Assembly: GCA_043805735.1 (NCBI GenBank)
Contig: JAZDHS010000020.1
Location: 9,750 to 73,749, forward strand
From: Candidatus Omnitrophota bacterium
Lineage (GTDB): Bacteria; Omnitrophota; Gorgyraeia; JAFGHF01
Length of the DNA stretch: 64,000 nucleotides
Direction of reading: 5' to 3'
Of the stretch, positions 12,001-15,000 are shown piece after piece (positions within the stretch are counted from its first letter, which is position 1; each line of letters begins with the position of its first letter). The position numbers are program-made.

Positions 12001-15000
12001 GTTGGAAATTACCGATGTGAATAACGCCTATCTATCACGCGGGGAACTCTCTTTCGATATCCTCGACGGTTGGTGGACCGATGCCGGGACGTTTGAATCG
12101 CTCTTACGGGCCAATAACCTGGTGGCGGAGAAAATCGGCCGAGGCCGGAAATGAACCCCGCCCTTCCTAAACAAGCATTGCGTAACAAGCAAAAGTACAG
12201 CAGAAAGTTTTAGGCAATGCAGATAAAATTAAGCAAAAGCAATATTTATATTGGCAATGCCGGGAAAGGAAGGGCGGGGTGAAGAAAAGAATCCTGGTGA
12301 CCGGTGGAGCCGGATTTACCCCGCCCCTCCAAAAATGATGGCTCAGGGTGGTTAATTAAATATTTTGGTTTATATTAAAGCGATGGCGCAATGAAAAAGA
12401 AAATACTGGTTACAGGAGGGGCGGGGTTTATCGGCTCCAATTTTATTCGTTATCTCTTCAGCGCTTACCCTAAGCTTTCACTGGTTAACCTGGATAAGCT
12501 GACCTATGCCGGGCGGGGCGCTAACCTGGGCGATCTCGCCGCTTCGCCGCGTTACCGTTTTGTCAAAGGCGATATCTGCGATCAGCAGGCCGTTAGCCAG
12601 GCGATGCGCGGTTGCGAGATAGTGATTAATTTTGCCGCCGAAAGCCATGTTGACCGCTCGATAGTTGACCCGGCACAATTCGTGCGCACCAATGTCTTCG
12701 GCGCGCATGTCCTGTTAGAACAGGCCCGCAAAAACAAAATTTCCCTTTTCTGCCAGATTAGCACCGATGAGGTCTACGGAAGCCGCATGAGTGGCTCGTT
12801 TAAAGAGACGGACCGGCTTGAACCCTCCAGTCCCTATTCAGCGACAAAAGCCGCCGCCGATCACCTGGCGCTGTCCTATTTTATTACCTATAAGCTTCCG
12901 GTGGTCATTGTTCGCCCAACCAATAATTTTGGACCTTATCAGTTTCCCGAGAAAGTGATCCCGCTTTTTGTGACCAATATATTAAAGGATAAAAAGGTAC
13001 CCCTCTATGGCGATGGCCTCAATGTCCGCGACTGGCTCTACGTCCAGGACTGTTGTCGGGCAATCGACATCGTCATTAACCGCGGCCGGCCCGGAGAGAT
13101 CTATAACATCGCTGGAAAAAATGAAATTAAGAATATCGAGTTAACCCGGCTAATTCTCAAGATGATGGATAAGCCCAAAAACTACATTTCCTTTGTCGCG
13201 GACCGTCCGGGACATGACCGGCGCTATTCTTTAGATCCGGCAAAACTCGCCAGGCTCGGTTGGCGTAGCCGTGTTGCGTTTACCCGGGCGCTTGGTGAAA
13301 CTATTCAATGGTATGTAAACAATCAGAAATGGTGGAAAAGGTTAAAAGGTTAAAGGAGCAGGACCAATGAGCGTGCAGGAGTTGCTGGATAAAATTAAAC
13401 AGAAGAAAGCGAAAGTGGGGATTATCGGCTTAGGCTATGTGGGTTTACCTTTAGCGGTTACCTTTGCCAAGGGTGGTTTTGACACCTACGGCTTTGATAT
13501 TAATCAATCAAGAGTCAACCGGGTGAAAAAAGGGGAATCGTATATTTTGGATGTGCCGCAGGCGCAGTTACGCCAAGTCTTGGCTAAAAAGAAACTCACC
13601 GTAAGCGCTGATTTCGCGGCGATAAAAAAGGTGGATGCGGTGATTATTTGCGTGCCTACGCCTTTAAAAGAGCGCAAAGAACCCGATGTTTCCTATATAG
13701 TTTCCGCCGTAGATAACATTAAAAAATACATGAAGAAAGGCCAATTGGTAGTGCTGGAAAGCACCACCTACCCTGGCACTACTGAGGAAATTATTTTACC
13801 GGCGCTGGAATCGCGCGGATTTAAAGAAGGCAAAGATTTTTATCTGGCCTTTTCTCCGGAGCGGGTTGACCCTTCCAATGCCAAATATAAAACGGAGAAT
13901 ACGCCCAAGGTTATCGGCGGAGTTTCCGCGCAGTCCGGAGCCGTAGCCCGCGCGCTCTACGCCGGCGTGATTCAAAAAGTAGTCGTGGCTTCCTCGGCCA
14001 AAGTTGCGGAGATGTCTAAGCTTCTGGAAAATACCTTCCGGATCGTCAATATCGCGCTGGTCAATGAGCTTTTACTGATGTGCGAGAAACTTGGTGTTGA
14101 TGTCTGGGAAGTGATCGATGTGGCCAAGACCAAGCCCTACGGCTTTATGCCTTTTTATCCCGGGCCCGGCGTCGGCGGGCACTGCATCCCAGTGGATCCG
14201 ATTTATCTTTCCTGGAAGGCCCGCCACTACGGCTTTGTAGCCCGTTTTATTGAATTAGCTTCGGCGGTAAACTCGCAAATGCCGCACTATGTCGTGGAGC
14301 GGATAACCAAGGCCCTCAACGTCCAGAAGAAACCGCTAAAGGGGAGTAAAATTCTCATTGTCGGCGTGGCCTATAAAAAGGATGTCAAGGATTTACGCGA
14401 ATCGCCGGCTTTGGATATTATCACCATCCTGCAGAATGCCGGGGCCTGCGTTTCTTATTACGACCCGCTGCTGCCTTATTTAAAGATTGACCACATTGAT
14501 TTAAAAAGCGTGCCCTTTAGTGCGAAAAGCTTTAGTGATAAGGATTGCGTGGTGATCGTCACTGACCACAGCGTTGTCGACTATGAGTTTATTCTTACTC
14601 ATGCGTCTTTAATCCTGGATACGCGCAATGTGATGAAAGATTTAAAAGGCAGAAAAGAAAAGGTAGTCCGGCTATGAGCCCCGCCCTTCCTAACAGCCGC
14701 ATTGCAAAGGGCAAAGAAGTATGGATACAAAAAAATATGCTAGAGATAAAAGCAAAAGTTGAAATTATTGTTGGCAACGCCAGGAAAGGAAGGGCGGGGT
14801 GAGCGTATATTTAGTTACCGGAGGAGCCGGTTTTATCGGCTCCAATATCGTCGAGGCCCTGGTCAAACGCGGCGAGCAGGTCAGGGTTTTGGACAATTTT
14901 GTCTCTGGGAAAAGAGAAAACCTCACCGCGCACCTTAAACAAATCGAGCTGACTGAAGGAGATATTAGAGACGTCGCCCTTTTGCGTAAGGTGGCAAAAG

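Follow-up and report, generated by a model that had tools for sequence, protein, structure and literature searches.

The stretch analysed here, which we call the window, comprises 64,000 nucleotides of a Candidatus Omnitrophota bacterium (assembly GCA_043805735.1, contig JAZDHS010000020.1, positions 9,750 to 73,749 of the forward strand), and we focus on four short units bounded by inverted repeats, E1 to E4, and on the genes of sugar-nucleotide enzymes whose starts they adjoin. All four units fall within 12.1-15.9 kb of the window. Two of them, E2 and E4, had been read in the original prediction as leader segments antisense to early codons of two genes of the short-chain dehydrogenase/reductase (SDR) type, the dTDP-glucose 4,6-dehydratase gene rmlB and a UXS-like gene. 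Seven open reading frames (ORFs) of the window (9666-18612) were compared with NCBIfam, and the rmlB product scores 449.2 bits against TIGR01181 (cutoff 365.1), its residues 4-318 corresponding to positions 1-321 of the profile, which is full length; a metagenome-assembled genome (MAG) of Candidatus Omnitrophota at NCBI also encodes a protein that matches it with 100% identity. In the following list, the core is the unit without its flanking duplicates, and a ghost ORF is one that still carries the displaced original N-terminus of a gene.

12152-12155, plus strand: left TGAA duplicate of E1, which holds the rmlA stop codon TGA (12152-12154) and overlaps the original rmlB ATG (12151-12153)
12156-12279, plus strand: E1, start-codon type, 124-bp core with arms CCCCGCCCTTCC and GGAAGGGCGGGG
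12280-12283, plus strand: right TGAA duplicate of E1
12279-12338, plus strand: rmlB ghost ORF, the displaced original rmlB N-terminus (13 residues) followed by TPPLQK and a stop from the E2 left arm
12315-12318, plus strand: left TTTA duplicate of E2, the Phe codon and the first base of the original Ile codon
12319-12426, plus strand: E2, SDR-embedded type, 108-bp core with arms CCCCGCCCCTCC and GGAGGGGCGGGG and an AT-rich interior
12427-12430, plus strand: right TTTA duplicate of E2, where the original rmlB frame (F-I) resumes
12391-13353, plus strand: present-day rmlB, its first 12 codons from E2
14674-14802, plus strand: E3 read-through ORF, from the old ATG at 14674 through the whole unit (MSPALPNSRIAKGKEVWIQKNMLEIKAKVEIIVGNARKGRAG, then stop), its TGA (14800-14802) overlapping the GTG at 14799 (GTGA)
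14675-14678 and 14800-14803, plus strand: TGAG duplicates of E3
14679-14799, plus strand: E3, start-codon type, 121-bp core with arms CCCCGCCCTTCC and GGAAGGGCGGGG
14799-15746, plus strand: epimerase-like SDR ORF (TviC/GalE-like), starting with the last G of the E3 core
15733-15855, plus strand: UXS-like SDR ghost ORF, the displaced original N-terminus MSTPKKRRVLITGGAGF, running through the E4 left arm and interior and ending in TAATG
15781-15784 and 15891-15894, plus strand: TTTA duplicates of E4
15785-15890, plus strand: E4, SDR-embedded type, 106-bp core with arms CCCCGCCCCTCC and GGAGGGGCGGGG
15817-15845, plus strand: promoter-like match in E4, TTTATA-17-TATAAT, 10/12, a consensus match only
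15855-16790, plus strand: UXS-like ORF (extended SDR) in its present-day form, with E4 as the source of the first 12 codons

Much of what had been described for the complementary 13-mers holds. ACCCCGCCCCTCC (12318-12330) and GGAGGGGCGGGGT (12415-12427) are exact reverse complements, the pair is found again at 15784-15796 and 15879-15891, and the right arms are indeed codons 9-13 (GGAGF) of the ORFs at 12391-13353 and 15855-16790. The spacers from left arm to ATG, 60 and 58 nt in length, are homologous as proposed, E2 and E4 being about 83% identical, and the arms lie 84 nt (E2) and 82 nt (E4) apart. The helix is not all-G/C, since it contains 11 G:C and two A:U pairs. Initiating 30S subunits have a footprint that ends roughly at +15 to +20; the right arm does begin at +25 from the A of the ATG, as had been given, but it thereby lies beyond the 30S edge and not inside the initiating footprint. 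Nor is the arrangement limited to two occurrences: there are four units within 4 kb, and the arm motif, with up to two mismatches, occurs eight times in the window against 1.46 ± 1.21 in shuffles, with none of 100 shuffles reaching eight. What had been overlooked is a displaced second SDR N-terminus directly 5′ of each SDR-gene left arm, together with the flanking TTTA.

On either side of each window unit stands the same 4-nt sequence as a direct repeat: TGAA (E1), TTTA (E2), TGAG (E3) and TTTA (E4). Excising the core of E2 or E4 in silico together with one TTTA yields an uninterrupted SDR reading frame in both genes, and the healed rmlB N-terminus aligns with the N-termini of orthologues. The ghost N-termini before E2 (GTG 12279) and E4 (ATG 15733) are cut exactly after GGAGF. 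Within E2, ATG 12391 and seven codons, KKKILVT, precede the right arm GGAGGGGCGGGG, which is read as GGAG; within E4, ATG 15855 is followed by KKRILVT and the GGAG arm. The right repeat thus contributes GGAG and the interior contributes the ATG and seven codons (KK[K/R]ILVT), so that the first 12 codons have been swapped and the enzyme N-terminus is complete.

The same ends recur well beyond the window. When a single genome of each species was scanned for both arms at a spacing of 75-105 nt, 93 loci emerged, most of them in Candidatus Omnitrophota MAGs; at least 21 strict copies lie in 16 loci of MAG CSMAG_1317, and 13 in 12 loci of the 1.55-Mb chromosome CP070837.1. Several features typical of MITEs (miniature inverted-repeat transposable elements) are present: perfect arms of 12-14 nt, seen in each of the four window units and in the 59 copies whose interior is AT-rich, cores of 100-125 bp with no transposase inside, and many copies per genome. 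Interiors are highly diverse, falling into 39 sequence clusters among 50 copies, and the 12-nt ends are invariant. Identical 4-nt flanks occur in 56 of the 59 AT-rich-interior copies, namely TGAA in 30, TTCA (the reverse complement of TGAA) in 18, TGAG in three and TTTA in two, the others being CTGA, TCCA and TTGA. Since the flank varies from copy to copy, it is a target-site duplication and not a fixed motif. Nothing specific on a repeat family of Omnitrophota, or on a MITE that restores start codons, came up in literature searches, and the family, which is large and abundant in Omnitrophota, is apparently undescribed so far.

Syntenic orthologous clusters, species-level or deeper relatives of the window, were recovered in three loci (L099, L101 and L102), and these align with the healed window sequence. 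They share the order rmlC-rmlA-rmlB, then an NDP-sugar dehydrogenase and an epimerase, with rmlD after rmlB only in L099 and L101 and a second SDR gene seen where the locus reaches that far (L102). The rmlA/rmlB overlap is ATGA in L099 and L101, with a single ATGA(A) and no E1; the dehydrogenase/epimerase junction, which corresponds to the E3 site, has TGAG once and no insert in L101 and L102; GGAGF-I is uninterrupted in the orthologues, each target tetranucleotide being single; and the L102 SDR site lacks E4, its real N-terminus matching the window ghost. Empty orthologous sites with single targets thus demonstrate insertion at all four window positions. Taken together, the 13-mers very probably constitute terminal inverted repeats, which bound a small, MITE-like and non-autonomous element, two copies of which, E2 and E4, inserted between the Phe and Ile codons that follow GGAG in rmlB and in the UXS-like gene.

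The E3 site is occupied differently in one orthologue. In L099 (JAFGHF010000024.1), positions 6160-6250, orthologous to 14675-14803, carry a different insert of about 75 bp with the same TGAG duplication, arms CCCCGTTAGAACC ... GGTCTAACGGGG and AGGAGG just within the right arm. As this insert shares only the CCCCG/CGGGG tips, a second repeat family has struck the same start-codon site.

Folding bears on the possibility that evolution shaped the leader/coding-sequence helix into a dedicated cis-regulatory RNA, by which SDR translation would be throttled or gated. Minimum free energy (MFE) folding places a terminal stem of 13-14 bp in all four window units, and the helix is thermodynamically credible:

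E1: MFE -47.0 kcal/mol, z -5.95
E2: MFE -43.4 kcal/mol, z -3.40
E3: MFE -41.9 kcal/mol, z -3.15
E4: MFE -47.3 kcal/mol, z -5.09

A stem that is stable and perfect in both genes, a covarying arm position 9 (T:A in 44 copies, C:G in eight, C:A in one) and its occurrence in two or three sugar-nucleotide SDR genes of one cluster would all suit such a regulator. Covariation of the two arms is, however, expected for a transposon with two identical ends, where one protein recognises both, and is thus not independent evidence of selection on the RNA. Moreover, the syntenic orthologues L099, L101 and L102 lack the whole segment while keeping GGAGF-I unbroken and conserving coding sequences and gene order; the same arms precede dozens of unrelated genes, including those for RibD_C, KdsB-like and PAS-HD proteins; target duplications and ghost N-termini show that the segment arrived by insertion; an Rfam scan of 11000-17500 gave no match at E ≤ 1; and the right arm, at +25, is beyond the initiation footprint. 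The segment is therefore an insertion and not an evolved leader of SDR genes, and a regulatory RNA, improbable in our view, is largely refuted as the origin of the feature. The complementarity is explained by the mobile element and does not represent a new class of riboregulator; an effect of the predicted helix on translation would nevertheless be a reasonable secondary consequence.

The folds of neighbouring units may also interact. The E1 right arm and the E2 left arm (12268-12330) are complementary at 12 of 13 positions and enclose the 19-codon ghost ORF, alone forming a hairpin of -35 kcal/mol. For 12140-12445, the centroid has each unit paired with itself (-97.6), and the MFE structure is nested (-109.6), the E1 right arm and the E2 left arm forming an inner stem that surrounds the ghost ORF. 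The four arms upstream of rmlB may thus pair in more than one way.

A metagenome scan for both arms followed by TTYATYGG added five further SDR-embedded loci (L094-L098), and L039 came from the genome scan. With E2 and E4, the SDR-embedded copies number eight and are spread over at least three SDR genes (rmlB, the UXS-like gene and that of an 'IGSHIVEEL' SDR). Each of the eight has a TTTA or TTCA duplication and an upstream ghost N-terminus, and each brings its own start, followed by five to seven codons that end in a hydrophobic residue and Thr and then by the arm as GGAG. The window copies (TTTA) and the group of L039 and L095 (TTCA) differ in both duplication and interior, and the same codon position was thus hit independently. 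The three SDR-embedded copies from a scan that accepted either arm variant all have the C:G variant, in which GGA GGG encodes Gly-Gly, whereas the commoner T:A variant would encode Gly-Arg instead. The ghost ORF ends on the new start in several of these copies, through TAATG in E4 (a -1 overlap) and ATGA in L095, L039 and L098.

The six additional SDR-embedded copies have a peculiarity in their ghosts, which read GGTGGAGCGGAGGTTCA at L039:7780-7802, at L095:1385-1410 and in L094, L096, L097 and L098 (with GGTGG in L097). This is one base more than normal GGAGF coding, and the extra base is found in two different SDR genes. It leads into a ...VHPAPP... frame, with the ATGA overlap with the new start in L039, L095 and L098, and it breaks a potential GCGGGG-TTCA-CCCCGC mini-hairpin at the junction.

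These ghosts bear on whether the original N-terminus might still be used. A ribosome could in principle bypass the hairpin of about 110 nt, taking off from one TTT codon and landing on another as in T4 gene 60 or the mitochondrial byp elements, and so keep the original N-terminus; identical TTT codons do stand at both feet of the stem in E2 and E4, and the window ghost N-termini are still intact. On the other hand, all eight SDR-embedded copies possess their own in-frame ATG and an N-terminus resembling a beta-1 strand, which bypass would not need, no stop codon comes right after the take-off codon, and the extra ghost base (GCGGAGGTTCA) in L039 and L094-L098 puts TTC out of the ghost frame. 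We regard bypass as very unlikely.

The source of the new N-terminus is clarified by a copy at an ordinary TGAA start-codon site, L072, whose interior is almost that of L095 and L098, including ATG AAA ATT CTA ATC ACA GGAGGGGCGGGG (MKILIT-GGAG). As this interior stands at a non-SDR site, the N-terminal codons belong to the element and not to a duplication within the host gene. A local tandem duplication or gene conversion between SDR paralogues, with the complementarity as a by-product and no mobile element, might seem attractive given the similar new and ghost N-termini (KKKILVT against KKRILVT) and three SDR paralogues within 4 kb. Such an event, however, creates neither an inverted repeat nor a 4-bp direct repeat, and it is at odds with L072, where the unit and its N-terminal codons occur outside any SDR gene, with the target duplications seen across the family and with units bearing the same arms genome-wide in other MAGs; the general extended-SDR consensus suffices to account for how alike the N-termini are. 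We therefore give this explanation hardly any weight.

Why the element should strike this particular motif is suggested by the target itself. The minus strand of GGAGF-coding DNA reads ATGAA-CCCCGC-, and the native GCGGGGTTCA of the L039 group is identical to the six final bases of the arm followed by the duplication. GGAGF-coding DNA is thus probably hit because its minus strand mimics the element end together with its preferred target. Not every SDR gene of the cluster was struck, as the third one (14799-15746) has GGAGGAGCCGGTTTTATCGG at 14814-14846, a TTTA target in a GGAGF-I context that is unoccupied.

Most copies, E1 and E3 among them, are found at start codons, the usual landing converting ATGAA into A-TGAA[unit]TGAA. 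In the 50 canonical copies, once oriented, the left flank carries the old start codon, ATG in 43, GTG in six and CTG in one, each followed by AA, and a Shine-Dalgarno (SD)-like 4-mer lies upstream of it in 30. At the right junction, the last G of the arm and the duplicated TGAA form a GTG in 47 of the 53 copies that have at least 400 nt of flank on both sides, and this GTG opens an ORF of at least 73 codons in 44 of the 47. The (A)GGAAGG of the right arm, 5 nt before the GTG, is a Shine-Dalgarno sequence; in E1, the right arm provides the SD-like AGGAAGG and the G of GTG 12279. Since the arm supplies both SD and the G of the GTG, insertion turns ATG into GTG and leaves the protein sequence unchanged. 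Five downstream products are ordinary housekeeping proteins, the Pfam matches of four of them starting between residues 4 and 12 and that of the fifth at residue 24, and repeat pairs 400-4000 nt apart with equal flanks proved to be neighbouring copies around housekeeping genes.

The old start may also remain connected to the new one. Its frame (MNPALP...) runs uninterrupted from one end of the unit to the other in 26 of the 50 copies, against one and seven for the other forward frames and 3.0 ± 1.7 (maximum nine) in composition-preserving shuffles of the interior. A core length of 3n+1, which the old-start frame requires, is seen in 34 of 50 copies (p = 6e-7); counted by sequence cluster, it is seen in 27 of 39 (p = 5e-6). 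The read-through ORF ends in a GTGA overlap with the new start in 24 of 50, including E3, where about three would be expected. That ORFs run through the left arm and end on or beside the new start across the family suggests that translation across the arms matters.

The orientation of the copies is relevant to one further alternative, in which the unit would be DNA that inverts and so serves as a phase-variation switch for a promoter in front of the SDR genes. Short inverted repeats around an AT-rich segment and the 10/12 sigma-70-like match inside E4 are what such a switch would show. None of the 59 AT-rich-interior copies, oriented by their interior, is inverted relative to the downstream gene or flank, no recombinase gene is found in the neighbourhood, and inversion would destroy the element-borne N-termini of rmlB and of the UXS-like gene, all of which makes a switch exceedingly improbable. 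The sigma-70 scan gave a single decent match, in E4, with no comparable match in E2, and as the total of 8 is not clearly higher than the 4.6 ± 2.4 of shuffles, we do not describe the element as promoter-bearing.

Returning to the MITE-like element, a mechanism can be proposed for how its insertions would be tolerated. In mRNA, the repeats would form a 13-bp stem. In start-codon copies this stem would hide the SD and the GTG, with the CCUCC of the left arm acting as an anti-SD mimic that pairs with the SD-bearing right arm; in SDR copies it would close the new start into the loop, the ATG of E2 and E4 lying 24 nt before the right arm. Being outside the initiation footprint, the E2 and E4 stem could slow early elongation or limit access. 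Ribosomes coming from the old start would read through the left repeat, melt the stem on the way and stop at the new start or close to it; translational coupling of the host gene would thus be kept, and the insertion would be nearly harmless. Such coupling could follow either the unfolding or the re-initiation model, both of which have been reviewed (PMC12548453).

One may go further and suppose that the element actively targets such sites, that its ends are shaped for the ribosome, as SD and start or as the Gly-Gly-Ala-Gly codons of the Rossmann nucleotide-binding motif, and that a sublineage has captured an SDR 5′ end and homes by mimicry into the GGAGF-coding DNA of unrelated SDR genes. The element would then be a portable N-terminus and expression cassette that rewires the initiation, and possibly the transcription, of sugar-nucleotide genes. 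We put this forward tentatively, as a possibility that we consider less probable than its opposite; if true, it would provide a mobile element whose insertion specificity and harmlessness are both bound to a protein motif.

Several points weigh against these interpretations. First of all, mobility is deduced from insertion signatures in the sequences: the empty sites come from species-level or deeper relatives and not from strains, the next homologue of the window rmlB product after the identical MAG protein being just 69% identical, and no transposase gene was found between the same repeats among the 100-odd loci. Second, the placement on start codons could reflect selection after unbiased insertion rather than targeting. 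Third, the read-through ORF is kept in only about half of the copies, and E1 and E2 have none, their upstream ORFs stopping 66 and 53 nt before the new start; E2 also has neither an obvious SD nor a promoter match. Finally, the reverse-strand frames are often open as well, with counts of 20 and 27 among the 50 copies where about 13.7 would be expected. This reverse openness is due to base composition, the reverse strand being pyrimidine-rich, and weakens ORF openness as evidence of coding; we thus rely on the contrast among forward frames and on the 3n+1 length bias.

Copies of other kinds were also encountered. GC-rich-interior copies with arms CCCCGCCCCTCC/GGAGGGGCGGGG occur in GC-rich Omnitrophota and Planctomycetia MAGs (L001, L005, L006, L007, L015, L019, L020, L028 and L059); they too sit on start codons (ATGA|core|TGA), where 9 of 11 have an ORF of 140 codons or more that begins with the G|TG, they appear to have a 3-nt duplication, TGA, and their interiors consist of several internal hairpins. 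A second, degenerate left arm follows directly after a copy at L055:5437-5460 (TGAACCCCGCTCTTCC), and L061:3101-3218 and L077:476-593 contain an internal ...GGGAAGGG..TGAACCCCGCCCTTCC junction; insertions into or beside existing copies thus occur. High-GC hits from Streptomyces, Amycolatopsis, Saprospiraceae, Capsulimonadaceae and other groups show inverted flanks in place of direct ones, along with long internal palindromes, and we treated them as unrelated. Palindromes of about 110-120 bp, CCCCGCCCCTCCCCAAGGGGGAGGGGAG ... CTCCCCTCCCCCTTGGGGAGGGGCGGGG, with inverted flanks CCCAC...GTGGG, in Brevifollis, Saprospiraceae and Lewinellaceae MAGs (L003, L013, L042, L043, L081 and L084) are a separate class, which shares a 12-mer with the window arms by composition only. 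As for the wider setting of the units, nearly all ORFs of at least 150 aa in window positions 1-64000 are on the plus strand (59 listed, with few short antisense ones), and the window looks like one long co-directional region for cell-envelope or polysaccharide biosynthesis.

Among known systems, the closest functional analogue is the mycobacterial interspersed repetitive unit (MIRU), which is likewise a short, mobile-looking repeat at start codons or between cistrons of operons, with a 4-nt overlap between its internal ORF and the host start. MIRUs are direct or tandem units of 46-101 bp that are not known to have GC-rich terminal inverted repeats or a 4-bp target duplication, whereas the units described here are single, bounded by inverted repeats, found in Omnitrophota, a different phylum, and without sequence relationship to MIRUs; we are also not aware of any MIRU taking the place of coding sequence. 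The Omnitrophota units are thus MIRU-like in their working and not members of the MIRU family. One review describes MIRUs as inserting at start codons and as having their ORF coupled to the gene at -4 nt (PMC12548453, citing Supply et al. 1997), and there the overlap of the internal ORF is thought to make insertion nearly harmless via translational coupling (PMC12548453).

Bacterial MITEs such as the Neisseria Correia elements, pneumococcal RUP and cyanobacterial Nezha are alike in being small, with perfect terminal inverted repeats, a short target duplication, many copies per genome, no transposase, possible co-transcription and long hairpins. They are mostly intergenic, however, and are not known to show codon-level precision, whereas here the repeat doubles as SD and start or as GGAG codons. 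Neisseria REP2 and the Borrelia IR repeats are further systems for comparison (Delihas 2011, PMC3184786); REP2 carries a promoter, a ribosome-binding site and also an ATG and is without terminal inverted repeats (Delihas 2011, PMC3184786), and, unlike for the Omnitrophota units, no target duplication or start-codon replacement mechanism is described for it. Rickettsia palindromic elements (RPEs) and Bordetella BRE insert inside ORFs (PMC3184786) and are similar as palindromic repeats within protein-coding genes that do not destroy the gene; RPEs, though, are translated in frame as an extra peptide, whereas here the frame is broken and the gene is rescued by a new start and N-terminus. Finally, phage MS2 coat/lysis, f1 VII/IX and E. 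coli rpmI-rplT likewise have a hairpin over the downstream start that is opened by translation of the upstream ORF. These arrangements are fixed and gene-specific, whereas here a comparable one would be delivered ready-made by a mobile unit. Repeats that serve as SD and start or encode GGAG, the replacement of N-termini and an Omnitrophota host with GC-rich Planctomycetia relatives set the element apart from MIRUs, MITEs, REP2 and RPE/BRE.

The finding has several consequences for our understanding of these genomes. A selfish repeat can enter a start codon, or a codon of a catalytic motif, almost free of cost by bringing its own translation signals. Protein N-termini are exchangeable by mobile DNA. 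A conserved motif, GxGxxG, can make a recurrent insertion hot spot across paralogues and lineages. The many natural variants of this one design, with an upstream ORF, a 13-bp stem and the SD or start within the stem, could be used to compare unfolding and re-initiation models of coupling. For annotation, gene callers will misplace starts and overlook ghost ORFs and element-borne leader peptides, and in Omnitrophota MAGs dozens of genes per genome are affected.

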